This document shows, one piece after another, positions 6,011 through 37,481 of a stretch of DNA of 64,000 nucleotides. The notes under the pieces are model-generated. The model ran no database searches and was not told where the DNA came from. It was given only the letters and a program-made list of their open reading frames with translations. Source of the DNA: a virus (Duplodnaviria; Heunggongvirae; Uroviricota; Caudoviricetes); the IMG/VR virus record IMGVR_UViG_3300023371_000005. One strand, 5' to 3'. Every line of letters begins with the position of its first letter. The first letter of the stretch is position 1. Position numbers and translations under genes: made by a program.

Positions 6011-7999
6011 TTACACGATTCCAAATGTCTCAATGAAGTCGGTTTCTGACAAGATCGCAACCCCCAAAGACTTCGCAGCTTGATTCTTTGAAGAGGTCGA
6101 GTTCACATCATTATTGATAAGATAATTAGTATTCTTGCTAACAGAACCTGTTACCTTACCACCAAGAGCCTCAATTTTAGCTTTCAAAGCATCCCGATTC
6201 TTGAAATGAGTGAGCTTTCCAGTAATTACAAAGGTTTTTCCTGTTAAATCAACAGCACCTTCCGCAGTCTCCTCAACCTTTGCTTCTGGAGAATTAAATT
6301 GAATAAAATGGTCAGCAATATATTTTGCTTCGGAGTAATCAAAATCGATTAGATTACGATGCATCTCGCCTCCAAAACCGGAAAGCTGATAGAATGGATA
6401 CTTACTATCCACAGCCACTACAAAATCTTCCCAAGTCTTGAAATGCTTGACCAATTCCTTAGAAGCCGTTGAACCAATCAACGGAATACCAAGAGCCGCA
6501 ATGAACTGATGAAGTTCACAGTGAGAACCAGTACTAATGGCATTAAATACCTTCTCGACGGATTTGACACCAAATCCAGGTTTTTTAATCCATTCTTCTT
6601 TATGAGTAGCCAAATCAAAAATGTCGGAGCATTTACTTACCCAACCCCAATCAATCAATTTCTCTAGAGTGGCTTTAGAAATACCCTTCATATCAAGGCC
6701 CTTCTTACCACAGAAATGATCTAATCGGTTAATCAACTTACCAGGACATCCGGAATCAATACAAATCAACACAACGGAATCATTCACGCCCCAATGCTGA
6801 GTCATTCCGCCGCAAACAGGACACTCATGAGGAATAAGAATCTTATTCTCTTCATATAAGCCTTCCTTACTAGCAGAAGCAATCTGCGGAATAATCATAT
6901 TAGCCTTGAATACTTCAATCTCTTGATACTTATGCGGACCAAGAGGGGCAAAAATTCCTGCCATAACACTGATATTGTGTAAACTTGCTCTTTCTACGGT
7001 AGAACCATCAATATCGACTGGTTCAAAGATTGCGACGGGAGTCAAAACGCCTGTTCTACCCATCGTCCATTCGATATCCAAAAGCCTGGTAGTGTAGGTA
7101 TCATCATAGAACTTAAATGCCAACGCATTTTTGAAGTGATGTGTCGTTTCGCCAAGAGAACGTCCGTATGCACAGTCCGCAAATTTGAATACTACGCCAT
7201 CAATGGGATAAGAATGAATTTTTGCAGTATTTCTAATCGCATCAATTACGTGTTCAATGTTCACTTGATTAACTGCTTGACCTGTTAGTGGAACAAATGG
7301 GACAATTGTAAATCCAAAAGGACGAAGTAATTCAAGCTTTTGGTCTAACCGATATTCCACTCCATCTTCAAAGTAGATGGAAGAAATAACATCCCATACC
7401 ACAAATGTGAGCCTGCGGGCCGCACATTCCTTGGCATCTAATAGACGAATACTACCTGCAGCGAAATTTCTTGGGTTCCGATACTGATTACTGAACTCTT
7501 GGAAATCATCATATGTGCAAATAATTTCACCATCAATTACCAGTTCATCAGTATATGGGATTTTACGCGGAATAGAAGAAAGAACTCTTGCGTTATGTAA
7601 AATATCTTCACCAACTAATCCGTTGCCCCGAGTCTCCGCAGCAACTAATTCTCCATTACGGTAAGTAAGAGAACAAGTAAGACCATCCATCTTACACATT
7701 GCCAGGAATAATTTATTTCCGACAAAATCTAATACTTCCTTTGAAGATTTAGTTTTTTCTAAGGATAACATCTTATGATTATGTTCTGCTTTTGATAAAG
7801 CATTTACTACTTCATAAGTAATAACTTGAGTAGGAGAATTAGGAAGGACTAATCCAGTTTCTTCTTCTAATTGTTTCAACTCAAAATATTTATTATCCCA
7901 TTCTTCGTCTGTAATTATTGGATTTCCTTCATCATATTTTTTAGTAGCATCATTTAAGATAGCTACTAAATAATGAATTTTATCATAGATACTATCCAT
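6011..7999 (-). CDS. ligA: NAD-dependent DNA ligase
   Basis: Adenylation motif KMDGL (KxDG), Zn-finger CPVCGG, HhH region and C-terminal BRCT-like segment; 662 aa. Confidence 0.9.
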   Translation of the reverse strand: MDSIYDKIHYLVAILNDATKKYDEGNPIITDEEWDNKYFELKQLEEETGLVLPNSPTQVITYEVVNALSKAEHNHKMLSLEKTKSSKEVLDFVGNKLFLAMCKMDGLTCSLTYRNGELVAAETRGNGLVGEDILHNARVLSSIPRKIPYTDELVIDGEIICTYDDFQEFSNQYRNPRNFAAGSIRLLDAKECAARRLTFVVWDVISSIYFEDGVEYRLDQKLELLRPFGFTIVPFVPLTGQAVNQVNIEHVIDAIRNTAKIHSYPIDGVVFKFADCAYGRSLGETTHHFKNALAFKFYDDTYTTRLLDIEWTMGRTGVLTPVAIFEPVDIDGSTVERASLHNISVMAGIFAPLGPHKYQEIEVFKANMIIPQIASASKEGLYEENKILIPHECPVCGGMTQHWGVNDSVVLICIDSGCPGKLINRLDHFCGKKGLDMKGISKATLEKLIDWGWVSKCSDIFDLATHKEEWIKKPGFGVKSVEKVFNAISTGSHCELHQFIAALGIPLIGSTASKELVKHFKTWEDFVVAVDSKYPFYQLSGFGGEMHRNLIDFDYSEAKYIADHFIQFNSPEAKVEETAEGAVDLTGKTFVITGKLTHFKNRDALKAKIEALGGKVTGSVSKNTNYLINNDVNSTSSKNQAAKSLGVAILSETDFIETFGIV

Positions 8000-18403: not shown

Positions 18404-19936
18404 TTACTTGCTGTCGTTGTTGTCAACGATCTTGGCGCCGAGCATACCACCGACCAGAGAGGTCAGGTCCATGCCGGTTGCACCACGGAAACCTTCGGTA
18501 ATCTGAGTGATACCACTCATCATGTTACCAGCCAGCTGACCAGCATCGTTGCCAATCACGTGGATGTTAGCACCCTTATAGCCTTCGCCGATAGCGGTTG
18601 CAATCGCAGGCAGCTGCTCATACAGCACCTTGATAGCATCCAATTCCATCTGCTGCTTAGCAGCGTCACCGTACTGCTTCAGTGCTTCAGCCTTTTCCAG
18701 CATACCCTTTGCTTCAGCCTCAGCCTTAGCACGGATAGCTTCTGCTTCTGCAACACCCAGAGCCTGTGCGGCGGCAGCCTTAGCCTTACCTTCGGCCTCA
18801 ATAGCCTCAGCCAGACGCTTCTGAGCTTCTGCCTCAGCAGTTGCCAGAGCCAGGTCGGCCGCAGCCTTCTTCTCAGCCTCGATACGAGCGGCTTCTGCCT
18901 GACGCTCACGCTCAAACAGTTCAGCTTCCGCAGCCTTCTGAGCGGCGTAAGCACGTGCGTCTGCTTCCTGAGCCTCGGCATACTTCTTAGCTTCAGCGGT
19001 CTTCTTCACTTCAGCTTCCAGCTTACGCTCCTTGATAGCGACTTCACGCTCCTGGAGTTCGATAGCCTTCTCCTGACGAGCCAGGTTTGCTTCTGCTTCT
19101 GCGATTTCCTTTGCCTTACGCTGGTTCTCAGCCTCGATGGCCTTAGCAGCGTCAGCCTTTGCCTGAGCGGTGTCAGCCTGCTCCTGCATCTGAGCCTTTT
19201 CGATAGCGAACTGGGTCTGCTTCTTAGCGATCTCAGTTGCGGCCTCAACCTTGGCATCGTTAGCGGCCTTATCAGCCTTAGCCTGGGCGACAGCAACCTC
19301 AGCCTTTGCGTTAGCAGCAGCGATGGATGCTTCCTTCTTGATCTTCTCGATGTTCTCGATACCCAGGTCACGAATTACACCATTCTTATCAGAGAAGTTC
19401 TGAATGTTGAAGGTGGTTAGATCGATACCCATATCGGCCAGGTTAGGAGTGACGTTCTCCTGAATACGCTCTGCAAAGATCTTCTTGTCGCCACGGATCA
19501 GGTCCTCAAACATGGTTTGAGAAATGATTTCACGGATATTACCTTCCAGAACAGGGATTACAATATCACGGATCTGGGCAGTGGAATAGCCGGCGAACTT
19601 GGAAGCCGCAATAGCCTGACGTGCGGGATCAATGGAAATGCTCATGTTGGCAACTGCGTCAACCAGAACGTGAATTGCGTCCTTGGTGGGGATTTCCTGA
19701 CGAGAAGTGAAGTCAACCTGGATGTTTTCCAGAGTCATTCGCTGAGTCTTCTGCAGGATAGGTAGTACGAAGATACCGCCACCGGTGCGGGTCTTTACTC
19801 GACCCAGACCAGATACGATCAGAACTTCGTTAGTACCAGCGACCTTCCAGAAAGCCTTGAAGATAACGACGAATACGATGATTGCCAGAATCGCCAGACC
19901 AGCGATGGACAAAGTGGGAATCAAAAATGCGGGCAT
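18404..19936 (-). CDS. flotillin-like SPFH/band-7 membrane protein with long Ala/Glu/Lys coiled coil
   Basis: N-terminal transmembrane helix, SPFH core, then about 200 aa of AEAKA-type repeats. Confidence 0.75.
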   Translation of the reverse strand: MPAFLIPTLSIAGLAILAIIVFVVIFKAFWKVAGTNEVLIVSGLGRVKTRTGGGIFVLPILQKTQRMTLENIQVDFTSRQEIPTKDAIHVLVDAVANMSISIDPARQAIAASKFAGYSTAQIRDIVIPVLEGNIREIISQTMFEDLIRGDKKIFAERIQENVTPNLADMGIDLTTFNIQNFSDKNGVIRDLGIENIEKIKKEASIAAANAKAEVAVAQAKADKAANDAKVEAATEIAKKQTQFAIEKAQMQEQADTAQAKADAAKAIEAENQRKAKEIAEAEANLARQEKAIELQEREVAIKERKLEAEVKKTAEAKKYAEAQEADARAYAAQKAAEAELFERERQAEAARIEAEKKAAADLALATAEAEAQKRLAEAIEAEGKAKAAAAQALGVAEAEAIRAKAEAEAKGMLEKAEALKQYGDAAKQQMELDAIKVLYEQLPAIATAIGEGYKGANIHVIGNDAGQLAGNMMSGITQITEGFRGATGMDLTSLVGGMLGAKIVDNNDSK

Positions 19937-19971: not shown

Positions 19972-20516
19972 TCAAGGTTCATATCCAAGTTTTTTGAGTA
20001 AATCAATCAACTTGGTTTGCTCTTGTAAGAGCCGTTGTGTTTGCTCCCAAGAGATAAAGTAATCTCTCAGAGCATAATCAATTTCAGTCAGCCTTTTGAA
20101 AATTTCTAAAGCTGATTTTTCTTCGTGAGGTAGCACTGTCCACTTAGTCGTCAACAGTGCCACTCTACTTTCACGAGCCAGTAAATCTTGCGGCCATTTC
20201 GATACCGCACTGCATGGTCATCATACCAACCTTTATCCATCTTTGTAATGGCTTCGGCGGCATCTTCTCTGTTTTTATAAACAGGCTCTTTATGGAATTT
20301 TAGATTTCCATGATAACCAGAACTCTCTTGCGGATCATAAGCAAAACTATTGAGTTCTTTTAGAATTGCTTTTTCACTTGTTGAGCAGTGATAATCTCGG
20401 TATTGAATTGCGTGTCCCATGATCAACCTCCTAGCAGCGGATCTGCAAGGTAATCCTTGCAGCGCTTTCCATCTGCACTTGCGGAGCATTGGGGGTTGTG
20501 GCCGCAGGTGTCGCAT
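19972..20516 (-). CDS. hypothetical protein; two overlapping ORFs (19972..20163 and 20151..20516) may be joined by a frameshift
   Basis: Adjacent ORFs in different frames overlap by 13 nt. Confidence 0.25.
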
Positions 20517-21103
20517 TCATTTTTCTGCTCCTCCTGGAGGCCAAGCATTTCAATACAAATTTCGGTTTCTTTCTTCATCATTTCAATTGCATCATCTAGT
20601 AGAACCGGAGTGCAATTATTGGAGTCCATACCAACATGGAACATATAGGGCATACTCATATAGAACTTGTTTTGCTGATGAGTATGACCAAACAGATTGA
20701 TTAGGTGCATCCGCAGATACGGAGCCTTTTCCAGATTAGAAGTAATGGTAGGATGATGACTCAAATAGAAGTTATACTTCTTATACTTGATCATTTCAGC
20801 CAAACCGAGAACTTCAACACGAGGGAGCTTCTTATAAAGTACCAAACGAGTTGCGGTGTCATGATTACCGGGGATAATCTTAATATTACCATTTAGCTCT
20901 GCTAAACAGTCCATACCATAAGAATTATCACCGAGCATTACATCACCCAAATGGAATACGGTATCATCGGGACCAACAACCTCATTCCATCGTCTGATAA
21001 CTTCATTATCATGCTCCATGTAATTCGAGAAACCTCTTGGACCCCATAGAAACTCTCGGTCATGACCGAAATGAGTATCAGAAGTCACAAAAATCCTTCC
21101 CAT
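20423..21103 (-). CDS. calcineurin-like metallophosphoesterase (candidate 3'-phosphatase partner of Pnk)
   Basis: DTHFGHD...GDV...GNHD motifs. Confidence 0.7.
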   Translation of the reverse strand: MGRIFVTSDTHFGHDREFLWGPRGFSNYMEHDNEVIRRWNEVVGPDDTVFHLGDVMLGDNSYGMDCLAELNGNIKIIPGNHDTATRLVLYKKLPRVEVLGLAEMIKYKKYNFYLSHHPTITSNLEKAPYLRMHLINLFGHTHQQNKFYMSMPYMFHVGMDSNNCTPVLLDDAIEMMKKETEICIEMLGLQEEQKNECDTCGHNPQCSASADGKRCKDYLADPLLGG

Positions 21104-21629
21104 CGGTTTTCACTTCCTTTCTTTCTTCACCAAATTCATTAATATGGATAATCATATCATAACCCTCATACAGAGAAGGAGCAATGAAACGCTTATTCAT
21201 ATCACGAATTACAGTCATAGGAACGTCCGCGCGTCCGACGCGGTTCTTGTTTCTTTCGACCGCCACATCAGTAGGAATTTCAAAAGAAACACCAATTACT
21301 TCAGCAGCGTTCTTCAGATTGATATTGCGGAACAGCTCTCTTCGAGCTTTAGGTGTCAAGTGGGTGGCATCAACATAAACATCAGAATGGAAGTAGTCAG
21401 AACTCAACTTGTTGTTGATTTCCTTATAAAACTCCCGCAGAACCTGATCTTCGTGAGAGAAATAACTTTCATTCTCTTCAACCAGAGAAAGACGAATCAA
21501 ATCTCTGGAAATCCAGTTGCCACCGTGAATCGCAATCTGCTTCTGAATCCAGGAGCTCTTGCCGCATCCACTAGGACCGGACATGACAAATAGACGTTTC
21601 CGCTTCATCCTTATACACCCCATTCTCAA
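21078..21629 (-). CDS. pnk: polynucleotide 5'-kinase (T4 Pnk kinase-domain-like)
   Basis: GPSGCGKSSW...ISRD parallels T4 Pnk GCPGSGKSTW...INRD; downstream RR/VP motifs are conserved. Confidence 0.65.
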   Translation of the reverse strand: MRMGCIRMKRKRLFVMSGPSGCGKSSWIQKQIAIHGGNWISRDLIRLSLVEENESYFSHEDQVLREFYKEINNKLSSDYFHSDVYVDATHLTPKARRELFRNINLKNAAEVIGVSFEIPTDVAVERNKNRVGRADVPMTVIRDMNKRFIAPSLYEGYDMIIHINEFGEERKEVKTDGKDFCDF

Positions 21630-21858: not shown

Positions 21859-21887
21859 ATTATATCATATTTTTTTATAAAAATCAA
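21859..21887 (-). promoter_or_regulatory. promoter TTGATT-17-TATAAT (minus)
   Basis: Motif. Confidence 0.6.
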
Positions 21888-22897: not shown

Positions 22898-23842
22898 TTA
22901 GGGCATCTGAATGACGGGGGTATTATCGCCACCATAGATGGTAGGCAACTTACCGTCCCACTTTTCGTAGTACATCTTTTCGAGCAGATTACCAGTCAGA
23001 GATTCAGCCAGTAATCTGTTAGCTTCAGCCTGGGCCTCAGCCAACATAATCATAGCCTCAGCTTCGGCTTCAGCCTTAGCGATATTAGCTTCATTCTTAT
23101 TCTGCTGAATTACCAGTTCCTGCTCGGACGCAAACTTGGCATCGATTGCCCTCTGGATTTCGGGGTTCTCATAGGAAATGTCTTCCTTGATACCCAGGAC
23201 AGTAATGGTAATGCCGTATTCCTTGAAGTAAGGAATTACATATTCCTTGACAGCTTCCATAATCTTGCCCTTGTTGGCGCCCAGCTCAGTAGAAGTGTAC
23301 TTAGAAGTTTCAATGTTGAAACGGTCTTCAACCAGCTTCTTAATGTCGTTGTCAATAATCTGCTCCAGAGGAGTGTTATTGTAGCGATACAGGAACTTTA
23401 CGGCATCAGCTTCCTCGATCATGGTAGTACAGTTCATACCGACATAGATGCCGATGTTATCAGAACTACCGCCAAAGATGGCGCGGTTAGAAGAAGAAGC
23501 AGTGTCGTCGCCGGAATCCCAAGAGCGAGATACAGGCTTACGCTCAACGACAATCAGTTCTGCGGAAGGCTTCCATTCACCAGTCCAGCTCATGCGGCCC
23601 GTCTGGACCCAGCGGTGAGGAATCTGGACTTCTTTAGTGGCAACCTTGTGCTCAGCCAGCAGCTCTTCAGAAGCAAAGGCGGACTGAGAACTGGAATCAC
23701 CAACCAGAGGGATCAGGAAACCGGTCTGCGAGGGAGAAATCTTGGCGAACTCAGGCTTGTCATAGGGCTTTCGACAACCAGCCAGGCTCAAACACAGGAC
23801 CAGCATCAGGACGAGCAGAACCAACTTCTTTACCTTATTCAT
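22898..23842 (-). CDS. SPFH/band-7 family lipoprotein
   Basis: Signal peptide with lipobox LAGC; SPFH-like core; C-terminal AEAEAEA coiled coil. Confidence 0.6.
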   Translation of the reverse strand: MNKVKKLVLLVLMLVLCLSLAGCRKPYDKPEFAKISPSQTGFLIPLVGDSSSQSAFASEELLAEHKVATKEVQIPHRWVQTGRMSWTGEWKPSAELIVVERKPVSRSWDSGDDTASSSNRAIFGGSSDNIGIYVGMNCTTMIEEADAVKFLYRYNNTPLEQIIDNDIKKLVEDRFNIETSKYTSTELGANKGKIMEAVKEYVIPYFKEYGITITVLGIKEDISYENPEIQRAIDAKFASEQELVIQQNKNEANIAKAEAEAEAMIMLAEAQAEANRLLAESLTGNLLEKMYYEKWDGKLPTIYGGDNTPVIQMP

Positions 23843-24122
23843 TTGTAATATTTTCCTTTCTATCGTTGAAATATTTTACGAAATCTACTGCGATGGATGC
23901 GCCGCAAATAAGAACAACCAGCACTTCTCCACTTGCGACCATATTCTGGACATGACTTGCGGTTTCCATCGCTACAAAACCGAAGTTGTCATTTTCTAGC
24001 TGCCCCATTGCGACTTCATTCATCAGGATTGGGGCGAGTCCTGTGAGTAAGGCGGACAATATAGCACATATCACAATTGCGATAAATGCCTTTTTGACCG
24101 CCTTTCTAATTAGCGGTTTCAT
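23835..24122 (-). CDS. small two-TM membrane protein (possible NfeD-like partner of the SPFH protein)
   Basis: Hydrophobic segments; adjacent to the SPFH gene. Confidence 0.3.
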   Translation of the reverse strand: MKPLIRKAVKKAFIAIVICAILSALLTGLAPILMNEVAMGQLENDNFGFVAMETASHVQNMVASGEVLVVLICGASIAVDFVKYFNDRKENITNE

Positions 24123-24155
24123 TTCGCTTTCTCCTTTCCTTTACCTTACATATAT

Positions 24156-24184
24156 ATTATATCATATTTTTTTATAAAAATCAA
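24156..24184 (-). promoter_or_regulatory. promoter TTGATT-17-TATAAT (minus)
   Basis: Motif. Confidence 0.6.
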
Positions 24185-24199
24185 AGAAGATTTTTTGCG

Positions 24200-24433
24200 T
24201 TAGAAGGTTGGGCCTTTACGCTCGTTGAAACAGACATCTCTTGCTGGGTAAAGGTATTTCTGAAAAACAGGACAAAAATATTTTTCCTCGTAAGTTATAT
24301 CATAGTATTCTGGATGGTCTTTGCCAGCCCAGTAAAGTTTTCGTTCTTCCATGATAACTTTTGAGCCATCAAAGAATGGACATTTACGATATAAGCAGGT
24401 GTGCCACCAGAATTGTTCATCAAATTCTTTCAT
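24200..24433 (-). CDS. hypothetical protein
   Basis: ORF. Confidence 0.3.
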   Translation of the reverse strand: MKEFDEQFWWHTCLYRKCPFFDGSKVIMEERKLYWAGKDHPEYYDITYEEKYFCPVFQKYLYPARDVCFNERKGPTF

Positions 24434-24990
24434 TTGGCCTCCTGGATATACTGCCGAATTTCTTCTCGGTAGTTATAGACAAAAGACGGAACTAACTGTT
24501 TTACAGCATAGTCGCCACCCTCCATCTGGAATGCCTGCCGCACCAGAGTAGCGCTGATACCCTCATATCGGTCCAGGAATTTGAAGCGAAGTAACCATCT
24601 TTCATCCTGTGCGAACCAACCGAGCATGATGCGGGGATCGTCACTGTAGTAGATGGTCATATCAGAATCCTTGGTCTTGCCGAACATCTTGATGTAAAGG
24701 TATCGGCCCCAACCGTGACTGTTGTCGCTTTCATCAGTCATATCATCCAAGGGATAGACATGAATGTGTTTCAGATCTTCGGTAGAAAATTGCTCGTGTA
24801 AAGCACCTTCCAGGAGCATCAGACGAAAATCAATGGGCAGAGGATTGCGCTTGGTGCCAGACTTGTCTGCGGAACCCACGAAAATGTGCAGGTCGCAATG
24901 ATTTGCGGTGCAATCTTCATAAGCCTTCTTCACCATGTTCATATGACCATTATGAAAAGGCTGTGCGCGGAACAGAATTACTCCAACCAT
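24430..24990 (-). CDS. nicotinamide/nicotinate mononucleotide adenylyltransferase (NadM-type NMNAT)
   Basis: (H/T)xGH motif FHNGH and ISATLVR (SxTxxR); strong SD upstream of ATG 24990. Confidence 0.75.
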   Translation of the reverse strand: MVGVILFRAQPFHNGHMNMVKKAYEDCTANHCDLHIFVGSADKSGTKRNPLPIDFRLMLLEGALHEQFSTEDLKHIHVYPLDDMTDESDNSHGWGRYLYIKMFGKTKDSDMTIYYSDDPRIMLGWFAQDERWLLRFKFLDRYEGISATLVRQAFQMEGGDYAVKQLVPSFVYNYREEIRQYIQEAK

Positions 24991-25000
24991 ATAATCCTCC

Positions 25001-25327
25001 TTACTTGATTTCCAGTTCTCTTGCTTGTTCGCTAGTGATACCGAAGTACTCCTCAAACCCCTCAATGTCAGCGGGGTCGCAGGCACCTGAACAGATACAT
25101 TTTCCGTCATGAAGCACCCAGTACCACATACCATCGGGATACTCAACCAGGTGCTCCATAAGATTGAAAAAGTCTTTCAAATTGGAACAGCCATAGACCG
25201 CAACCAGACCTTTTCCGGTAAATTCTTCGGTAAAATAAACATACGGATCAAGTACTATACGATCCCTAATTTTGTCAGTAAAAGCTACAATGATGGGGGC
25301 ATCAATATTTACTGTCATTCTTATCAA
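25001..25327 (-). CDS. hypothetical protein
   Basis: ORF. Confidence 0.3.
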   Translation of the reverse strand: MIRMTVNIDAPIIVAFTDKIRDRIVLDPYVYFTEEFTGKGLVAVYGCSNLKDFFNLMEHLVEYPDGMWYWVLHDGKCICSGACDPADIEGFEEYFGITSEQARELEIK

Positions 25328-25575
25328 TCCCTCTCTTTAATTGTGTATTTATCCCAACCATATTTGGGAATCATTTTCATAAGTGTTATTGAATCTTTTA
25401 CGCTAAAAAGTTGACAATGCTCGCAAAAAGTCTTATAAAGAAAATCTTCTGTTAGAGATAAGACCATATCTTGAGCATCTTCCAGAGAGTCACAAAAACA
25501 TACAATATCATAGCTGTATCGCTCATCACGATAGACTTTTAATCTATTTTTCTCGTAAATAGCATACTTGCACAT
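25324..25575 (-). CDS. hypothetical protein
   Basis: ORF. Confidence 0.3.
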   Translation of the reverse strand: MCKYAIYEKNRLKVYRDERYSYDIVCFCDSLEDAQDMVLSLTEDFLYKTFCEHCQLFSVKDSITLMKMIPKYGWDKYTIKERD

Positions 25576-25604
25576 CTTTTCCCCTCTCTTTACTTTGTAT
25601 ATAT

Positions 25605-25633
25605 ATTATATCATATTTTTTTATAAAAATCAA
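25605..25633 (-). promoter_or_regulatory. promoter TTGATT-17-TATAAT (minus)
   Basis: Motif. Confidence 0.6.
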
Positions 25634-25635
25634 AA

Positions 25636-25658
25636 AGACCCCTCAAAATGAGGGGTCT
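25636..25658 (-). terminator. hairpin terminator
   Basis: Stem agacccctc-aaaat-gaggggtct. Confidence 0.6.
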
Positions 25659-25662
25659 CGTA

Positions 25663-26106
25663 TCACAGTTCGGAAATCAATTCTTTACGCTTTTCCATAA
25701 GAATTTCACCAAGCCAGTTTTTACCAGCAATTTCTGCACATTTGGGACAGAAGCAGGAACCCCAAGTATTGTCATGCCAAGAGTTGCCTTCAATAAGAAT
25801 GCAATCATTTGTAGCAATCAACTTACTTGCGAGTTTAGGGTGCGTATCAAATTTCCGCCCTACGCCAACGCGCATAGCAGTGTATTTGACCTGTTCCCAA
25901 TCCTCACGCAACTGAACTTGACGGCCCATTCGCTTAGCCTTACCCGGAGTTGCGGCGGCCGCAATCTTCTTTCTTTCCTCTTGGTCGAGGGTTTTCATTG
26001 CCTGAAAGAAGTGTTCGTTGGTAGGATATTCAATTCCATCATAGGTAAAAGGGGCATAATAGAAGTTACTTAGAAAAGCGTATTTTCCATCAAATTCAGT
26101 AATCAT
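25663..26106 (-). CDS. NADAR (YbiA-like, DUF1768) ADP-ribose-processing N-glycosidase
   Basis: Fold signature YAFLSNFY...NEHFFQAMK...GNSWHDNTWG. Confidence 0.75.
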   Translation of the reverse strand: MITEFDGKYAFLSNFYYAPFTYDGIEYPTNEHFFQAMKTLDQEERKKIAAAATPGKAKRMGRQVQLREDWEQVKYTAMRVGVGRKFDTHPKLASKLIATNDCILIEGNSWHDNTWGSCFCPKCAEIAGKNWLGEILMEKRKELISEL

Positions 26107-26115
26107 ACTTCCTCC

Positions 26116-26949
26116 TTAGAAATCAATAAACGGGGTATCTTCATGGAGGACTTCAAAGCAACCTCCATGTCGATTGGAACTACCTTCCCATTTTCTGGTG
26201 CGGGCACGAATATAGGGAATATTCAGCATACGCATTTTATGAGCATTTCGCTCATGACGCTCTTCAATTAGTCGCAGAGTTTCATAAGAAGGCGTCTTAT
26301 TGTCCAGAAGATAAGCATCGAGGACTTCATAAGTGAAGCCGAAATTATCTTCATCGGTTTTACCGGTCATGCCATCGCCAGGAGCCTTATGAACCAGCTC
26401 AGCAGGCAGATTCAGAGCATCACCGATAGCCAAAATTTCACGAACATAAAAGTCGTAAAAAATGGAGAAATCACCGGCCATATCGCCAAACTTAGTAGTA
26501 TAGCCGACATACATTTCAGATGCATTGCCAGTATGAACCACTCGACCGCCGATCAATGCGGCGATGCCATACAGAGTAGTCATGCGCAGGCGAGCAGGAG
26601 TATTAGTGTAGAATACATCATTGCCACCACCGAAATACTCTTCGGGGATTGCTTCCACCAAAGCATCCATGGTGGAGCCAATATTGACGACAGTATAGGG
26701 CATATGCAGATGCTCTACGACTTTGTAAGAATCTGCGATGTCAGCCTGTTCGCCACAGGGCATCAGAACACCGAAGACATTCTCAGAACCCAAAGCGCGA
26801 CACAACAGGGCAGCCGCAATTGTAGAATCCTTGCCACCGGAGATGCCGATAACAGCTTTGGTGGTTTTACCACCATTCTTCACGAAATACTTTTTGATTT
26901 CGGTAATCATATACTGGATTTCCAGTTCAGCGTCAAATGCTCTACCCAT
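26116..26949 (-). CDS. nadE: NH3-dependent NAD+ synthetase
   Basis: PP-loop GISGGKDS; NadE family length. Confidence 0.85.
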   Translation of the reverse strand: MGRAFDAELEIQYMITEIKKYFVKNGGKTTKAVIGISGGKDSTIAAALLCRALGSENVFGVLMPCGEQADIADSYKVVEHLHMPYTVVNIGSTMDALVEAIPEEYFGGGNDVFYTNTPARLRMTTLYGIAALIGGRVVHTGNASEMYVGYTTKFGDMAGDFSIFYDFYVREILAIGDALNLPAELVHKAPGDGMTGKTDEDNFGFTYEVLDAYLLDNKTPSYETLRLIEERHERNAHKMRMLNIPYIRARTRKWEGSSNRHGGCFEVLHEDTPFIDF

Positions 26950-26951
26950 TT

Positions 26952-27458
26952 TTACTCCTCCAAATAGTAGATATATACTTCATAGTCCTCATCAAGGACT
27001 TGCTCGATCATTGTCTTGATGACCTCCCAGTTGCCGCCACCCAGGCCGCAACCAATATGGGATGGGAAGCCAATTGTTGCGCCTTCTGGAACAAATTCTC
27101 GGATATGTCCGAGGCAGCTCCAGAAGCCATCATAAGAAGTGTATCTGCGGCCATCATAACCATAGTGCTCTTGGGCGAACATATTGATTACAGTATGAGT
27201 TTTATCCACCTGGACTAGTTGAATATCGCCTAAAAGCACTTCGCTGGTCTCGGGACAATGTTCAAAACCACCGCAGTTACGCAGAATATTATCCTCAGTA
27301 TCATTATACTTCTGGATATATTCGCTGTAAACTACGGGCCACTTATCTTTAATTGCCTTAGCGATGCCAGAGCCCATGCGACCCTGGCAATTCACCTGAT
27401 GGCAGTAATAGTCAACATCTGCATCAAGCAGACTACCTTTTACATGGTAAATACTCAT
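26952..27458 (-). CDS. macrodomain protein (ADP-ribose-binding/hydrolase)
   Basis: Macro motifs HQVNCQGRMGSGIA and IGCGLGGG. Confidence 0.8.
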   Translation of the reverse strand: MSIYHVKGSLLDADVDYYCHQVNCQGRMGSGIAKAIKDKWPVVYSEYIQKYNDTEDNILRNCGGFEHCPETSEVLLGDIQLVQVDKTHTVINMFAQEHYGYDGRRYTSYDGFWSCLGHIREFVPEGATIGFPSHIGCGLGGGNWEVIKTMIEQVLDEDYEVYIYYLEE

Positions 27459-29248
27459 TACTTACCCCACAGTCTTTCGCGGATTTCAGCCAGACTCTGT
27501 CTATTGGTCAATTTACCATTATAGAACACAGTCTGAAGCAGATTCTTTTCGCCCAGAGTATCTTCAAATGCGTGCTCGTCGGTATAGGACTCACCATCCA
27601 GAGCAACAACACAGCAACCCTTCTGGCTCTTTTTCCAAGCCAGAGCTTTAGGCTTCTTGAAGATATTGATACCATTACCAACGCAGTCTTCGGCATAAGT
27701 AGCCTTTACAGCAATGCCAAAAGTATCACGAGTATAAGGACCAGCATTGGTACCGTTCCACTTACCAGCGAACTGGAGAGTACCTTCATCGTCAGCACAA
27801 ACCAGAGCCATCATGAACATAGAACCAGCGCCCATAACGACATTATTGGCAGCGTAGCCCTGGGCGGCCAGACGCTTGTAAATTTCATTGGCATAGTCAG
27901 GCAGAATGCTGTCGCCGTAGATTGCCTTTAGATGGGGGTCCAGAACCTTATAGCCCTTTTCATTCACAGTATGACCGACAATCTGGTCCAATGCCCAAAC
28001 GGTGCCGAGCAGTTCCAGAGAAGGCTGAATTTCTTCCCACTCAAAAGCATAGTCTTCAACGTAGTAATACTTACGATCAGTCCATGCGCCACGCTCATTA
28101 GTCCAGTCAGGATAGACATTCAGAGCGTAGAACTTGTCATTGAAATGGAAATACAGGACAGTTTCTTCCTCAACACCGCAGTCACGGCAGAAATCATACA
28201 TCCAGTCCTTAGTGAATTCCTTGTCGGAAAACAGCTTTTCAGCTTCTTCGTCATCATAAGGAGTCAGCCAGTCAATGGGCTTACCAGCCAGGATTTCGAC
28301 AGGATTACCGGAATCGCCACGCACCAGAAGAGTACCATCATGAGCCATAATTTCTCTTTTGCACTGAGGAAGCAGGTTCATAACCAGATTTTCGTAGTCA
28401 TAAGAGTCGGAAACCATGGAGAAACTGTGGTGTAGATAAATTTCACTCAGCAGGCGCTTGATGTGAGTAATTTCATCACCATCAACGGCGAAGTTAGAAC
28501 ACATGACAGAGTGTTCGGTGGAGATAGCACCGAAGCCGACAGGCTCATTTTCGATGTTGCAATCATAATGCTTTTCCATCCACATGATTGCGGGAACAGT
28601 TGCAGTATTATGGTGGCTCAACAGCCATGCGCCAGAAGCCTTGATAGCAGATTCAGCGGAGTGCTGACCACGCATAGAGAAATCACCGATCATCTTCCAA
28701 GGACTTACAGAAGAGTCGCAGGTTTTTTCAACCCAAGTATTAACGACCTTGCGGTAACGATAACCGACTTCAGCCGCAATCTGCGTATGCCACATGGAGC
28801 AGGACAGCAGAGTTTCGATGGTATTTACCAGCCAGACGAAATTGGGATGAGTATTGGAAATCTCAATCTGAGGTACACCAACTTTAGTGCGAGACCCCTC
28901 GGGGACAGCACGAATTTCCAGGGGTAGATAACCCAACTCCCACAGGTCACGAATCTTACGATCCTCATAAGAACCGGGTCCCATGGTATAGGTCAAAACA
29001 CGGTTATACTCATACAGAACTTCATCCAGATCACGGTCAAAGAACCAAGTTCTGAAACCATTGATCAGATATTCGTCAATGAAAGCCTGCAGACCAAAGA
29101 AAGTGATATGGTCTACATCATCCAGGCGACTTATTCTGGGAGTGTAATAGGAAACCATCTTGGTCAGACCCTTGGGATACTGCTCATGGTGAGTAGCTTT
29201 ATAGAAGTCAATCAGCAGAAGAGGATTGTAATTATCCATAGTTATCAA
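27458..29248 (-). CDS. nadV: NAMPT-family phosphoribosyltransferase (NadV-like or Namat-like) with about 100-aa insertion
   Basis: N-terminus NPLLLIDFYKATHHEQYP and C-terminal PRTase regions match the NAMPT family. Confidence 0.8.
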   Translation of the reverse strand: MITMDNYNPLLLIDFYKATHHEQYPKGLTKMVSYYTPRISRLDDVDHITFFGLQAFIDEYLINGFRTWFFDRDLDEVLYEYNRVLTYTMGPGSYEDRKIRDLWELGYLPLEIRAVPEGSRTKVGVPQIEISNTHPNFVWLVNTIETLLSCSMWHTQIAAEVGYRYRKVVNTWVEKTCDSSVSPWKMIGDFSMRGQHSAESAIKASGAWLLSHHNTATVPAIMWMEKHYDCNIENEPVGFGAISTEHSVMCSNFAVDGDEITHIKRLLSEIYLHHSFSMVSDSYDYENLVMNLLPQCKREIMAHDGTLLVRGDSGNPVEILAGKPIDWLTPYDDEEAEKLFSDKEFTKDWMYDFCRDCGVEEETVLYFHFNDKFYALNVYPDWTNERGAWTDRKYYYVEDYAFEWEEIQPSLELLGTVWALDQIVGHTVNEKGYKVLDPHLKAIYGDSILPDYANEIYKRLAAQGYAANNVVMGAGSMFMMALVCADDEGTLQFAGKWNGTNAGPYTRDTFGIAVKATYAEDCVGNGINIFKKPKALAWKKSQKGCCVVALDGESYTDEHAFEDTLGEKNLLQTVFYNGKLTNRQSLAEIRERLWGK

Positions 29249-29451
29249 ATTCCTTTCTCAAATCCGCAAACGGAAATTTCAATGTCATTGGGAAATACAT
29301 CAGCCTGATGTGCTACATAATCGGTAACCGCTTCCATATAATTTTCAACTGCGGTTTCAAATTCCTCTTTACCGCAGTCATCTTCGAGACCGACTAATTC
29401 AGGCTCTATTGTGAAGAGGTATGTGACGGACACATAAGCAACTTTTTCCAT
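29245..29451 (-). CDS. hypothetical small protein
   Basis: ORF. Confidence 0.3.
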   Translation of the reverse strand: MEKVAYVSVTYLFTIEPELVGLEDDCGKEEFETAVENYMEAVTDYVAHQADVFPNDIEISVCGFEKGI

Positions 29452-29717
29452 TACTTATACCCTCTCTTCTTTCTTAGCTTACGCAGACCTTTGCTTTCCC
29501 ACTTATTCGGGACGTGTTCTCTGGTCGCCAGCTCAGCCTTGAGCTGGGCACGGTAGCAGTTCAACTGATCCCAATCTTCGTTCCCCCAACAATGCTGACA
29601 ACCCCAGGTGTAGGTGCTTCTCAGTTCAGCCAGTAGCTGACGAGTATGCATTTTAGTCATTTCTTCGGGAGTGTGGATATTGATATCTTTGAAACCTGTA
29701 TAACAGTAAAAACTCAT
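29451..29717 (-). CDS. hypothetical protein
   Basis: ORF. Confidence 0.3.
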   Translation of the reverse strand: MSFYCYTGFKDINIHTPEEMTKMHTRQLLAELRSTYTWGCQHCWGNEDWDQLNCYRAQLKAELATREHVPNKWESKGLRKLRKKRGYK

Positions 29718-29749
29718 TTTTTTTTCACTTCCTTACTTTTTGTATATAT

Positions 29750-29778
29750 ATTATATCATATTTTTTATAAAAAATCAA
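29750..29778 (-). promoter_or_regulatory. promoter TTGATT-17-TATAAT (minus)
   Basis: Motif. Confidence 0.6.
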
Positions 29779-29781
29779 AAA

Positions 29782-29805
29782 AGTCCCTCTGAACGCAGAG
29801 GGACT
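29782..29805 (-). terminator. hairpin terminator
   Basis: Stem agtccctctg-aacg-cagagggact. Confidence 0.6.
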
Positions 29806-29812
29806 CTCAATA

Positions 29813-30097
29813 TTACTTGATAAATGTTTCGCAGAACGTCTCATATAAGGATTTTGCGAAAATCCAACAAACTTTGAATACGAACCAAATCATCCAGCCT
29901 ATCCAGCCAATGACTACAATTCCGGCGATAACTACGCCGACAGAAGCAGGAATGACAAGGAATAGAGCTTCGAGAAAAGAGGCTACAAGCCAGATTGCTG
30001 CTCCGACTAGGGCAAAGCCAAAAATGGTACAAACCATTGCCAGACAGGCAAGTAAAAATTTAATCATTGGGAATTTCAATCCTTTCAAAGACCTCAC
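29813..30097 (-). CDS. small multi-pass membrane protein
   Basis: Hydrophobic ORF. Confidence 0.4.
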   Translation of the reverse strand: MRSLKGLKFPMIKFLLACLAMVCTIFGFALVGAAIWLVASFLEALFLVIPASVGVVIAGIVVIGWIGWMIWFVFKVCWIFAKSLYETFCETFIK

Positions 30098-30851
30098 AAA
30101 TATCTTCGGTAAAACGCAATTTTACGGGGAAATAACCTTTGCGCTCGACCTCATCACGATTGATTATTACGATATTATCAGAGTGGAACCAATCAGGTAA
30201 GAAATTTGCGGGAGCGACTGCCAAAGAAGTGCCAACGATAATCATAAGGTCAGCTGCAGATACATGAGCCATTGCCATTTGCCACTGAAGACCCGGTAAA
30301 CTTTCGCCATATAGGGTGATATCGGGGCGGATAGTGAACTCGCCGCCGCATAGAGGGCACCTCGGCACACCATTTTTATCATCATAGTTGCCATCCATTA
30401 CATCTTCTGGAATGAATGTCTCACATAAGCAGCCAGGGCAGTACCAGTCAGCCATGGTGCCATGAATTGTGTCAACTACTTTTGAACCGGCTTTTTCATG
30501 GAGTCCGTCAATATTCTGAGTAACCACAGACACAGTTCTTGCTTGCTGCAGCTCAGAGATTTTTTTATGAGCGATGTTCGGTTCAGCATTGCGAAAATCC
30601 ATATTATTTCGTAAATACTGGAAGAACCGCTCAGGTTCCATTTTGAGGCAGGTGTGGCTCAACATATATTCTGGCTCATCTTCTTCACTGGTATTGTATA
30701 AGCCATTATTGCTGCGGAAGTCCGGAATGCCGGAGCCGGTAGAGATACCAGCTCCGGTCAAAAATACGATACGCTTGGCTCCCGCAATCATTTCATTCAA
30801 TTGTTTTATGCGTTCGTCAAAGCTTTCCATTTTAGTTATCTCCTGTTCCAT
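30060..30851 (-). CDS. cobB: Sir2-family NAD-dependent deacylase/ADP-ribosyltransferase (sirtuin)
   Basis: GAGISTGSGIPDFR, Zn module CPGC...CPLCGG, GTSLAV. Confidence 0.85.
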   Translation of the reverse strand: MEQEITKMESFDERIKQLNEMIAGAKRIVFLTGAGISTGSGIPDFRSNNGLYNTSEEDEPEYMLSHTCLKMEPERFFQYLRNNMDFRNAEPNIAHKKISELQQARTVSVVTQNIDGLHEKAGSKVVDTIHGTMADWYCPGCLCETFIPEDVMDGNYDDKNGVPRCPLCGGEFTIRPDITLYGESLPGLQWQMAMAHVSAADLMIIVGTSLAVAPANFLPDWFHSDNIVIINRDEVERKGYFPVKLRFTEDICEVFERIEIPND

Positions 30852-31341
30852 TCAGCTGGGCTTCCAGAACGACGTCGCCCTGAGCCATAGCCTTATCCAC
30901 AGCCATCTTAGCAGACTTCATATCACAACCCTGCTTTTTCAAGAAAGGCATTACATTCTTTACGATAACGCCCTTATTGCCAGAAGTGATAGAAACAGCA
31001 TTGCAGATACCCCAGTAATTGACCATCTTGACGATTTCATCAACATCGTCAATGACCTTGGGAGCATATTCCTCCACAATAGCCAACTTTTCGCGGTATT
31101 CAGCCTTGCGGGCCGCATACTTCTCACCGTCGGGGCAGGTATCGATCATTTCTTTTACAGTCTTGACATACTTTGTCAATACTTCATCAACCAGTGTATC
31201 AGTGATTGCAACACGGGTTTTGTCGGCAGTAGCAGCCTTGTCAATGGAAGCTACCATATCGGCGATAGTTAGACGACGAAGTTTATTACCCTCTTTTAAA
31301 GCTGTCGTCATATCAGCTTTGAGGGTTTCATACTTATCCAT
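30832..31341 (-). CDS. GatB/YqeY-domain protein
   Basis: MDKYETLKADMTTALKEGNKLRRLTIADMVASI resembles the YqeY domain N-terminus; SD before ATG 31341. Confidence 0.55.
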   Translation of the reverse strand: MDKYETLKADMTTALKEGNKLRRLTIADMVASIDKAATADKTRVAITDTLVDEVLTKYVKTVKEMIDTCPDGEKYAARKAEYREKLAIVEEYAPKVIDDVDEIVKMVNYWGICNAVSITSGNKGVIVKNVMPFLKKQGCDMKSAKMAVDKAMAQGDVVLEAQLNGTGDN

Positions 31342-31358
31342 TGGAGTATGCTCCTTTC

Positions 31359-32189
31359 TTAGTGAAATATAGTAATCCAACCGCCCCAGCCAGCACCGTC
31401 ATAGGGACCATCAATCAGCATCTGGGGGAAAATGGATTCAGTGGTATAGATATGCTTGATCAGACCGGACTCGGGCAGATCGCCAAGAGTAACAGTTTCT
31501 TCCAGGTGGGTCACATACAGACTTACGCTCTTGGCACCTGCTTCCAGCAAAGCCTTTGCGGAGTGGTAGAAAGTGCCACCTCTGGAGCAAATATCATCAA
31601 CAATCAGAACATCTTTGTCTTTGATGTTCTCGGCATTGATAATATCTAGACCTAAAATCTTGCCAGTAGCCCAGTCTCGCTTTTTCATACCAAAAGCATA
31701 AGGTAGAGGGGACTTATCAGAGTAGCGCTTCATTGCGCCCTCATCGGGGAAGAACAGAACTTCAGCCTTGGAAGCCAGAGTAGCCTTATGAATATAAGGC
31801 TCAACACCAGTATCCTCTACTCGATCAAGCAGAGCCAGGCTCACGTTGCTATGGGCGTCCCGCACCCAAACAATCTTGAAGTTCAGAGAGTTAATAATCT
31901 CGCAGAAATACTTCAGAGTAAAGACGTCAGAATCAGACTTTACTCGATCCATGCGAGCGTGGGGAATGTAGGGCATATCCAGAACAACATCGGTGTTGCC
32001 AAAGTGGCGGTCGATATGACGCTTCACGCAGATTAGAGTGAAGAGTTCGCTATCGTCTTCATAAAGCCATTCCACCTTGATGGCGCCTCTGTTATCAAAC
32101 ATCTCTTCTGGATTGAGCTTGATAAGCAAAGAGTGATCGGGGAACATGGACTGACCGCTACGAATAGAAATATTACCTACTCTAATCAT
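31359..32189 (-). CDS. PRPP-synthetase-family pyrophosphokinase (Prs/Adps-like)
   Basis: PRTase type-I motif VLIVDDICSRGGT and N-domain segment PYIPHARMDR. Confidence 0.7.
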   Translation of the reverse strand: MIRVGNISIRSGQSMFPDHSLLIKLNPEEMFDNRGAIKVEWLYEDDSELFTLICVKRHIDRHFGNTDVVLDMPYIPHARMDRVKSDSDVFTLKYFCEIINSLNFKIVWVRDAHSNVSLALLDRVEDTGVEPYIHKATLASKAEVLFFPDEGAMKRYSDKSPLPYAFGMKKRDWATGKILGLDIINAENIKDKDVLIVDDICSRGGTFYHSAKALLEAGAKSVSLYVTHLEETVTLGDLPESGLIKHIYTTESIFPQMLIDGPYDGAGWGGWITIFH

Positions 32190-32201: not shown

Positions 32202-32810
32202 TTAGATAATGTTGATCTGGCACAGCTTCATTGCTTCCAGGGCGGTCTTGTGGGACTCAGGAGTCACGCAAGCGCAGCAGTCAGCAACGACATTGACAGG
32301 AACTTCGGGCAGAGTTGCCTTACACAGAATTGCATTGGACAGGACGCAGATGCCAGTGCATACGCCCATCAGAGTGATTTCCTCGATTTCAAAGCGGTCA
32401 TTCATATCATACAGAATATTCTGCAGTTCAACAGAGCCAAAAGTAGGCTTCTTGACGCGGATGGGGTTCTCGTCATAAACGGGATATGCATCATAACCGG
32501 ACATATAGCGATTTTCGCCCTGGGCATGATGAATCCAGGCTTCAAAGACTTCATCGACGATGCCATAGCCAGCGGTGCCTTCGATGCAATGAGGAACGGG
32601 CAGGTTCTTACCTTCCAGAGTATTCATATAGTCATCGGTATGAGTATCCTTGGTGAAGATGATAGCGGTATTGGGATCAGCAAGTTGATGAATGGTTTCC
32701 GCAACCAGAGGAACGATAGCCTGGGCTTCGGGAGTACCCAGTGCGCCATCGATAAAGTCCCTCTGCATATCAACGACAATGACTACCTTAATCTTTTCCA
32801 TATTTTTCAA
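32202..32810 (-). CDS. pncA: isochorismatase-family hydrolase, probable nicotinamidase
   Basis: VVIVVDMQRDF and catalytic Cys segment LMGVCTGICV. Confidence 0.65.
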   Translation of the reverse strand: MKNMEKIKVVIVVDMQRDFIDGALGTPEAQAIVPLVAETIHQLADPNTAIIFTKDTHTDDYMNTLEGKNLPVPHCIEGTAGYGIVDEVFEAWIHHAQGENRYMSGYDAYPVYDENPIRVKKPTFGSVELQNILYDMNDRFEIEEITLMGVCTGICVLSNAILCKATLPEVPVNVVADCCACVTPESHKTALEAMKLCQINII

Positions 32811-32835: not shown

Positions 32836-32864
32836 ATTATAACATATTTTTTTTGAAAAATCAA
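32836..32864 (-). promoter_or_regulatory. promoter TTGATT-17-TATAAT (minus)
   Basis: Motif. Confidence 0.6.
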
Positions 32865-37452: not shown

Positions 37453-37481
37453 ATTATATCATATTTTTTTATAAAAATCAA
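37453..37481 (-). promoter_or_regulatory. promoter TTGATT-17-TATAAT (minus)
   Basis: Motif. Confidence 0.6.

Follow-up and report, generated by a model that had tools for sequence, protein, structure and literature searches.

NADAR and macrodomain genes in a candidate NAD+ reconstitution island of a phage

The genes for a NADAR protein, the NAD+ synthetase NadE and a macrodomain protein lie side by side in a 64,000-nucleotide stretch of phage DNA, IMG/VR record IMGVR_UViG_3300023371_000005 (hereafter the window), where they appear to be the last three genes of one co-transcribed operon. The NADAR and macrodomain proteins are probably helpers within this early NAD+-rebuilding operon, which belongs to an island of three operons, and not a stand-alone pair of DNA-repair antitoxins. 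This reading is built on gene identities, operon structure, conserved residues, synteny and covariation, and all enzymatic activities and physiological substrates given below are predictions from these. The block as a whole seems to be a NARP1-type NAD+ reconstitution island, because its transferase is nearest to a solved Namat and a candidate Adps is found in the island. A first-pass annotation had presented the two genes as stand-alone candidate reversers of DarT-type ADP-ribosylation, which had the kind of function right for NADAR, probably misplaced the emphasis for the macrodomain protein, and overlooked the main context, the island itself.

Operon structure and the NAD+ island

Three open reading frames (ORFs) on the minus strand fill positions 25663-27458 exactly, and their order together with the profile matches confirms that the NADAR and macrodomain genes flank nadE, as annotated (Table 1). 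The window proteins were compared with Pfam, NCBIfam/TIGRFAM and PHROG profiles, and the bit scores with the curated cut-offs. NADAR and the macrodomain protein are both single-domain proteins, in agreement with the annotated "standalone" genes, and NadE has in the profile scan a single synthetase domain and no glutaminase domain. The PF01661 score of the macrodomain protein is marginal, 22.5 bits as compared to a cut-off of 22, but the assignment is firm because of the phrog_335 match, an NCBIfam match to the DarG macrodomain (1.7e-15) and the AlphaFold and Foldseek results. Homologues were found in 1066 (macrodomain) and 533 (NADAR) of 50,697 phage records, while NadE is rare, with 51 of these isolate records. 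With hundreds of conserved homologues the three ORFs are real genes and not chance ORFs. A megablast search of 24000-31500 against the same 50,697 records gave no match; the phage has no close cultured relative, and annotation could therefore not be transferred.

The window has 17 copies of the motif TTGATT-N14-TGN-TATAAT, every one on the minus strand, as compared to 0.12 expected by chance. Besides the three copies in Table 1 these include 277-305, 21859-21887, 24156-24184, 37453-37481 and 48503-48531, and many of them stand directly behind a terminator hairpin. The motif looks like a promoter for the host sigma-70 with an extended -10 element, which suggests early expression. Unit B, between one such promoter and the hairpin that follows the NADAR stop codon, holds six genes in the order two small ORFs, Namat-like, macrodomain, NadE and NADAR. 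The Namat stop and the macrodomain start overlap by 1 nucleotide (TAATG), the gap between the macrodomain gene and nadE is 2 nucleotides, and the 9 nucleotides between nadE and the NADAR gene contain only a GGAGG ribosome-binding site. A scan of the whole window found no copy of the motif between 29750 and 25633. There is a single generic sigma-70-like match within the macrodomain ORF, at 27303-27331, but it is not evidence of a promoter, because shuffled sequence gives more matches of this kind (16.6) than the region as a whole does (12). The annotation gave each gene its own promoter, a view which does not agree with the tight spacing, the bounding promoter and terminator, and the lack of an internal motif copy.

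The promoter is near-identical at all 17 minus-strand sites, where it reads TTGATTTTT(A/T)TAAAAAA(A)TATG(A/T)TATAAT. The repeated copies offer a ready-made map of the early transcription units of the phage.

The order Namat-macrodomain-NadE-NADAR was identical in 16 of 16 metagenomic loci collected from relatives of the macrodomain and NADAR proteins (52-95% identity), with flanks that vary, and NADAR is thus the fixed last gene of the cassette in this phage clade. A separate observation comes from one of these contigs (ENA ERZ28633367 scaffold_173, L015:1-1238), which carries a NARP3 pair, a NadR-like protein (CTP_transf_like and AAA_28) and a PnuC-like protein (NMN_transporter), about 1.6 kb upstream of the cassette. 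This implies that some such phages stack several NAD+ routes.

The gene immediately upstream of the macrodomain gene had been labelled NAMPT. Its product is Namat-like, with 350 bits (1.9e-103) to the structures 9W5X/9W5W, which are the Namat of phage SPbetaL1 (PMC12774641), 259 bits to 9KE8 and 135 bits to human NAMPT. It keeps R38 (R40 of the clamp), R307 (R306) and the catalytic His ("TEHS"). In NARP1, Namat joins nicotinamide to the pyrophosphate of ADP-ribose (ADPR) (10.1101/2024.02.11.579819).

Unit A contains, in order, the PncA-like, Adps-like, YqeY-like and Sir2 genes and a small membrane protein. The Adps-like protein falls below every NCBIfam Prs cut-off (71 bits as compared to 113) and is 30% identical to the Prs-like gene in the Adps-macrodomain-Namat operon of Vibrio phage K412. 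The Adps family is C-terminally truncated, and the window protein, with 276 residues, has that length (PMC13586617). As the criterion for Adps we used a PRPS-like fold without the C-terminal alpha11-alpha12 module, as distinct from a bona fide Prs. Archaeal Prs proteins are equally short, so the length alone does not decide the identity. The PncA-like protein matches the nicotinamidase model NF008623 weakly, with 36 bits as compared to a cut-off of 174. Unit C consists of two small ORFs, the nicotinamide mononucleotide (NMN) adenylyltransferase and one more small ORF, and a homologue of this NadM-type enzyme adjoins the cassette in relatives.

A LigA-type DNA ligase is also encoded in the window, which implies a direct need for NAD+ at the level of replication. 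The island would keep NAD+ available while host defences consume it, and the phage's own demand would include, among others, this ligase and Sir2.

Table 1. Coordinates of the genes, promoters and terminators of the NAD+ island and of the DNA ligase in the window.
Feature	Position	Strand	Evidence and remarks
NAD-dependent DNA ligase, LigA type, with BRCT	6011..7999	-	
NadM-type nicotinamide/nicotinate mononucleotide adenylyltransferase (unit C)	24430..24990	-	PF01467 1.5e-7; NF002243 and TIGR01527 ~1e-11; no Nudix domain
Promoter of unit C	25605..25633	-	exact motif copy
Terminator hairpin closing unit B	25635..25659	-	11-bp stem, then T-run, right after the NADAR stop codon
NADAR protein, Glu-type (YbiA-like), AdfN-like	25663..26106	-	147 aa; PF08719 2.1e-31, 109.8 bits (cut-off 35.1)
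NH3-dependent NAD+ synthetase NadE	26116..26949	-	277 aa; PF02540 8.4e-48, 163 bits; TIGR00552 154.1 bits (cut-off 63.65)
Macrodomain protein, Adpp-like, ALC1/TARG1/DarG/Poa1p class, Gln-type	26952..27458	-	168 aa; phrog_335 1.2e-37
Namat-like nicotin(amide/ate) ADP-ribose/phosphoribosyl transferase	27458..29239	-	Ala213 at the NAMPT Asp219 position
Two small ORFs heading unit B	29245..29717	-	68 aa (29245-29451) and 88 aa (29451-29717); no family match; small ORFs here in relatives too
Promoter of unit B	29750..29778	-	exact motif copy
Terminator hairpin closing unit A	29779..29808	-	13-bp stem, then T-run
Sir2, CobB-type NAD-dependent protein deacylase	30060..30851	-	PF02146 1.4e-47; NF001752 245.4 bits (cut-off 221)
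YqeY-like protein	30832..31380	-	PF09424 1e-8; beside Sir2 or Adps in relatives
PRPP-synthetase-like protein (PRPP, phosphoribosyl pyrophosphate), candidate Adps (ADPR pyrophosphate synthetase)	31359..32189	-	276 aa; phrog_619 4e-70
Isochorismatase-family, nicotinamidase-like (PncA-like) protein	32202..32810	-	PF00857 5.2e-23
Promoter heading unit A	32836..32864	-	motif copy TTGATT-N14-TGN-TATAAT

The macrodomain and NADAR proteins

The AlphaFold model of the macrodomain protein (pLDDT 88.9) matched the macrodomains of DarG, TARG1, BT1257 and Poa1p in Foldseek. DarG was at the top of the list (3.4e-9), and the query TM-score was highest for BT1257, 0.78, and 0.70 for Poa1p. DarG was also the best NCBIfam match, although at 57.2 bits as compared to a cut-off of 250 and with the macrodomain part of the model alone covered. 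When the catalytic residues are aligned, N23 and the Gly-rich loop are kept, but Gln96 replaces the catalytic lysine, which is Lys80 in Taq DarG, Lys84 in TARG1 and the Lys of "PTK" in AdfM (gp104) of phage PhiKZ. Comparison with SCO6735 gave the correspondences Q96 to Q85, H20 to H24, N23 to N27 and G136/G138 to G126/G128. Gln85 is essential in SCO6735, and BT1257 is in the same Gln state (PMC9411070). The sequence similarity to SCO6735 and BT1257 is modest (E 2e-10 and 3e-7), and the two lysines that position the DNA in SCO6735, K34 and K89, are S30 and G100 in the window protein, where R27 and R104/R105 are nearby and might substitute.

The gene context gives a clearer picture. We looked at the neighbourhoods of the 80 nearest IMG/VR relatives of the macrodomain protein (33-68% identity) and counted homologues within 8 kb. 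A Namat homologue was present near 71 of them (89%), NadE near 71, Adps near 67 and PncA near 61, while NADAR was near 19 and Sir2 near 7. The macrodomain protein of Vibrio phage K412, which is encoded between Prs-like and NAMPT-like genes, is 35% identical to that of the window by tblastn (E 8e-25) and 42% in the alignment, and the two have the motif "N(M/L)xAQExYGYDGRRY" in common. In the NARP1-AP system of Vibrio phage Gary the macrodomain protein Adpp dephosphorylates the ADPR-1''-phosphate that RES-domain NADases produce, so that NARP1 can use it, and thereby defeats aRES (10.64898/2026.01.28.702374). The K412 operon, with its identical architecture, served as comparison in place of Gary's Adpp. 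Operationally an Adpp gene lies at most two genes from a NARP1 gene, and here the macrodomain start overlaps the Namat stop.

It is most likely, from the Namat-linked context and the missing DarG lysine, that the macrodomain protein is an Adpp-like ADPR-1''-phosphate phosphatase rather than a DarG2-like DNA hydrolase, and thus it appears to be a new member of the known Adpp-like family. The annotation had made it a DarG-like reverser of DNA ADP-ribosylation; of that claim the fold class stands, but with the missing lysine and the NARP1-linked context it is weakly supported. As an Adpp it would convert ADPR-1''-phosphate, which RES-type NADases produce, into free ADPR by removing the 1''-phosphate, and so supply Adps and Namat. 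Possibly it would also clear other O-linked ADP-ribose esters.

One such ester could come from the phage itself. TARG1-class macrodomains deacetylate O-acetyl-ADPR, JGI names several close homologues of the macrodomain protein "O-acetyl-ADP-ribose deacetylase", and a CobB-type Sir2 is encoded in the same island, so that the macrodomain protein could turn the 2''/3''-O-acyl-ADP-ribose left by Sir2 into ADPR and close a loop of Sir2, macrodomain protein, Adps and Namat. We find such a loop very doubtful, since Sir2 is near so few of the 80 relatives as compared to Namat, belongs to unit A and not to unit B, and shifts its position relative to the cassette among relatives. The same facts, and the CobB type assigned by the deacylase model NF001752, give no support to the SirTM-like logic that had been suggested for the locus, which would call for a class-M sirtuin ADP-ribosyltransferase sharing an operon with its macrodomain eraser, and the idea was rejected. 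It had also been suggested that the phage ADP-ribosylates host targets itself, but no ADP-ribosyltransferase was found among the approximately 50 window ORFs scanned, a set in which not all small ORFs were covered.

The code-15 gut phage Phass-1 has a 139-residue protein with a DxDxT motif (FDFDDTV) between Namat and NadE (L018:11784-12203; OQ749652.1 97783-98202). It had no match in Pfam. Its position, which the macrodomain protein fills in the window, hints weakly at a phosphatase slot, and the protein may be a non-homologous replacement.

The best solved relative of the NADAR protein is E. coli YbiA (2b3w, 5.8e-22), and it also matches the NADAR of P. nicotianae, PnNADAR (8bau, 1.7e-13), for which the roles of the residues are known from the structure with bound ADP-ribose (PMC11543638). 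Residues E31, K38, K58, R62, W70, E106, D112 and W115 align with E43, K50, K75, R79, W89, E125, D130 and W133 of PnNADAR, respectively. All these eight ADP-ribose-binding or catalytic positions are kept and are invariant in relatives; the positions not kept are Y84 (R67) and R93 (K74). NADAR subtypes can be told apart at the E125 position, where Glu marks the YbiA type, Asp the DarT1-linked type and His the T4 gp30.3 type. The window protein has Glu (E106). It scores 24.5 bits with PF08010 (cut-off 36), below the level of the T4 gp30.3 type, and it differs from DarG1 in having Glu instead of Asp at the catalytic position and no ADP-ribosyltransferase gene in the operon. With bas32_0066, which is AdfN-Bas32 of Escherichia phage IrisVonRoten, it shares 42% identity across 97% of the length (pairwise E 7e-36). 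AdfN-Bas32 alone neutralises DarT1, and it protects three phages against DarTG1 while giving no such rescue from DarTG2 (PMC11825919). Every NADAR type tested, YbiA included, cleaves ADP-ribose linked to guanine (guanine-ADPr) in vitro (PMC11125620), and YbiA-type enzymes also remove it from cytidine (PMC12945103).

DarT1 modifies guanine, which is reversed by NADAR, and DarT2 modifies thymidine, which is reversed by the DarG macrodomain (PMC11543638, PMC11825919); the annotation had the two toxin labels swapped. Its proposal that NADAR reverses ADP-ribosylation of DNA agrees with what is known of the biochemistry, considering the kept residues and the identity to AdfN-Bas32. The NADAR protein appears to be a new member of the known AdfN-like family, and reversal of DarT1-type guanine-ADPr is plausible. 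As an ADP-ribosyl N-glycohydrolase of this kind it would cut ADP-ribose off the exocyclic amine of guanine, which would both repair the phage DNA and free ADPR.

The NADAR protein also carries an insert with a CxCxxC motif, "WGSCFCPKC" (C118, C120 and C123; 25752-25769), which is specific to this clade. The insert is present in Phass-1 and absent from E. coli YbiA, AdfN-Bas32 and gp035 of Bacillus phage FADO, and next to the catalytic loop with D112 and W115 it may form a small metal site.

A housekeeping function, with NADAR as a YbiA-type N-glycosidase that clears reactive intermediates of the riboflavin pathway, is barely credible. The corresponding model TIGR02464 does score 100.7 bits (cut-off 73.7), and YbiA is the best solved relative, but no riboflavin genes were seen among the window ORFs scanned, the gene is fixed in the NAD operon, and the related AdfN-Bas32 is an anti-DarT1 protein (PMC11825919). 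This role was rejected on the gene context.

It is also conceivable that the two proteins are matched orphan antitoxins, NADAR against the guanine-ADPr of DarT1 and the macrodomain protein against the thymidine-ADPr of DarT2, and that the NAD operon only gives them early co-expression. Phage AdfN NADARs and AdfM macrodomains (PhiKZ gp104) are proven anti-DarT proteins (PMC11825919, PMC13309987), the window NADAR is close to AdfN-Bas32, and DarG is both the best NCBIfam match and the first Foldseek match of the macrodomain protein. The Gln-type SCO6735 rescues cells from DarT (PMC9411070). Furthermore, in Bacillus phage FADO (L007:4192-5468, gp035-gp033) NADAR (COG3236) and macrodomain genes are one small ORF apart and away from the NARP1 operon of that phage, and in several IMG/VR contigs the macrodomain gene precedes NADAR by about 1.3 kb and NAD genes are absent from the vicinity, which implies that a link between the two genes exists also independently of NAD synthesis. 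We consider a matched pair unlikely, because the macrodomain protein lacks the DarG and AdfM lysine and both DNA-positioning lysines of SCO6735, scores far below the DarG cut-off and is 20% identical to AdfM, because 89% of its nearest relatives are beside a Namat homologue, and because no DarT-related context is present.

Several points weigh against a role of the two proteins as helpers in NAD+ rebuilding. The TM-scores of 0.64-0.78 for DarG, TARG1, BT1257 and Poa1p describe a fold that does not separate a phosphatase from a DNA hydrolase, and SCO6735 efficiently cleaves thymidine-ADPr DNA, so the macrodomain protein could do so as well (PMC9411070). Concerning NADAR, about 64 of the 80 loci of its relatives are not beside NAD genes, AdfN-Bas32 sits among genes of nucleotide metabolism, and the position in the operon may reflect the timing of co-expression and not a coupling of pathways. 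In addition, E. coli YbiA, which is likewise of the Glu-type, gave no protection from DarT1 in cells, and neither YbiA nor T4 gp30.3 protected cells (PMC11125620).

The opposite possibility is that NADAR does not repair DNA but serves NAD+ reconstitution as a second adapter, turning soluble N-linked products into ADPR for Adps and Namat; candidates are histidine-ADPR, N-linked cyclic ADPR isomers, base-exchange products and ADP-ribosylated guanine nucleotides. In favour of this, NADAR invariably stands at the end of the cassette. Of 80 NADAR relatives, 16 have NAD-pathway genes no more than 8 kb away, arranged in at least six orders, and Iyer et al. noted phage NADAR genes beside NadM and NadV and proposed soluble ADPr derivatives as targets (PMC9503650). 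RyDEP (10.64898/2026.05.28.727677) and Adpp (10.64898/2026.01.28.702374) are precedents for enzymes that cleave a signal or product and so fuel NARP1. Yet all NADARs tested act on ADPr linked to guanine or cytidine (PMC11125620, PMC12945103), none is known to act on soluble molecules of this kind, and most relatives are encoded away from NAD genes: a macrodomain gene is within 8 kb of 16 of the 80, and about 50 are near neither macrodomain nor NAD genes. Literature searches linking NADAR with NARP1 or Thoeris signals returned nothing relevant, with incomplete coverage. A purely soluble substrate thus seems rather improbable.

The Asp219 position and a nicotinate branch

The presence of NadE in the operon may be connected to a single residue of the Namat-like enzyme. 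In the alignment with human or rodent NAMPT, Asp219 ("GTDTV" or "GTDTI") corresponds to Ala213 in the window ("NTATV", approximately 28601-28603), whereas the Namat of SPbetaL1 and 9KE8 keep the Asp. This residue sets the substrate specificity of NAMPT: according to the accounts of Khan et al. 2006 given in PMC7096376 and PMC4919578, D219S switches the substrate affinity, and D219A abolishes the activity of the human enzyme on nicotinamide. We surveyed this position in all loci retrieved in the analysis (L001-L179) and scored NadE homologues within 8 kb. In the 90 loci with NadE the residue was Ala in 82 and Ser in 8, as compared to Asp in 4 of 4 loci without NadE, and a PncA-like gene accompanied 75 of the 90.

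The simplest reading is that the Ala/Ser-type enzymes use nicotinate. This would account for NadE, since the Namat-like enzyme lacks the Asp that selects nicotinamide and probably takes nicotinate as its substrate. It is possible, though short of probable, that the whole cassette is an undescribed nicotinic-acid branch of phage NAD+ reconstitution. Nicotinate, from the phage PncA-like enzyme or from the host, and ADPR pyrophosphate or PRPP would give deamido-NAD or nicotinate mononucleotide, respectively. NadE would amidate the deamido dinucleotide to NAD+, and the mononucleotide would first pass through the NMN adenylyltransferase. The macrodomain and NADAR proteins would be adapter hydrolases, restoring ADP-ribose from ADPR-1''-phosphate and from N-linked ADPr on guanine or small molecules, respectively. 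Literature searches joining NARP1 with NadE or PncA found nothing relevant, but their coverage was incomplete and novelty is not proven.

A related locus in IMGVR_UViG_3300018878_000164 shows a nicotinate route in another form. A bona fide NAPRTase of the PncB type (L026:5915-7138; PF04095 223 bits, and NAPRTase_N) is encoded immediately before NadE-NADAR, with PncA, NMN adenylyltransferase and macrodomain genes upstream, so that a full Preiss-Handler set takes the place of Adps and Namat. The locus is at the same time a difficulty, as its macrodomain and NADAR genes go with a pathway based on PRPP, Adps is lacking within 8 kb, and feeding Adps can therefore not be their sole role. Two further points call for caution. 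The Ala/Ser-type enzymes are 29-94% identical to the one in the window and may all belong to one clade, in which case part of the covariation with NadE would be phylogenetic. In the window enzyme the residue aligned with F392 of the selectivity clamp is M474 (followed by F475), and an insertion of about 23 residues before Y502-T503 obscures the F392/Y396 alignment.

An 833-residue protein encoded elsewhere in the window (48569-51070, minus strand) matches the shoulder of the major vault protein (8.4e-22) and a Vault_3 repeat (1.5e-8), which is unusual in a phage. Around the NAD island there are RNA-repair-like genes (20423-21629, 34751-36214 and 40684-41466, minus strand), a set made up of a P-loop kinase (AAA_33) with a Metallophos_2 phosphoesterase, an RNA-ligase-like protein with a PHA02142 OB domain and a Thg1-family enzyme. 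Two SPFH/Band-7 proteins are encoded at 18404-19936 and 22898-23842.

Comparison with known systems

Phage NADARs (AdfN, 2025), anti-DarT2 phage macrodomains (AdfM, 2026) and NARP1-linked macrodomain phosphatases (Adpp, 2026) have already been described. What the locus contributes beyond these is the combination of NADAR and macrodomain genes in one operon with NadE and an Asp-less Namat-like enzyme, which recurs across many uncultured large phages. AdfN-type and Adpp-type enzymes on one transcript suggest that phages combine protection from NAD+ depletion with protection from ADP-ribosylation, two processes that use the same metabolite pool. Should the nicotinate route be real, it would be another phage way to rebuild NAD+, and it would explain why NadE is near-universal in the module despite its rarity among isolates.

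As to the single proteins, the window NADAR is, like AdfN-Bas32, a phage-encoded orphan protein of one domain, and the two have all catalytic positions in common, including the Glu at the E125 position. The Bas32 gene is found among those for RNR, DHFR, ThyA and RNase H and not among NAD genes, and its product lacks the CxCxxC insert. The macrodomain protein is of the same fold class as DarG2 and AdfM (PMC13309987, PMC11543638) and shares with them the Gly-rich loop and N23, the Asn of the "VN" motif, but it has Gln96, no DarT partner and no DarT-binding domain. It is closer to the SCO6735/BT1257 subclass in having Gln at the Lys80/Lys84 position, and BT1257 gave its top TM-score; from SCO6735 it differs in the Ser30 and Gly100 that take the places of K34 and K89.

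The operon as a whole, with the Ala213 Namat-like enzyme, the Adpp-like macrodomain protein, NadE and NADAR, and with the PncA-like and Adps-like genes upstream, looks like a NARP1 variant. It resembles the NARP1-AP system of phage Gary (Adps, Adpp and Namat; Osterman et al. 2026, preprint 10.64898/2026.01.28.702374) in that the macrodomain gene is joined directly to the Namat-like gene and a PRPS-like gene is nearby. The order is Namat-macrodomain and not Adps-macrodomain-Namat, however, with Adps five genes upstream in another transcription unit. The locus also adds NadE, NADAR and a PncA-like gene, and has Ala at the Asp219 position. With the classical systems NARP1 (Adps and Namat) and NARP2 (Nampt and NMN adenylyltransferase) (10.1101/2024.02.11.579819) it shares PRPS-like and NAMPT-family genes within ten genes, an NMN adenylyltransferase close by, the phage setting and a presumed purpose in counter-defence. 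The window enzyme differs in lacking an equivalent of Asp219 and in its obligate linkage to NadE, usually with a PncA-like gene as well, which would imply a deamido (nicotinate) route that neither NARP1 nor NARP2 has.

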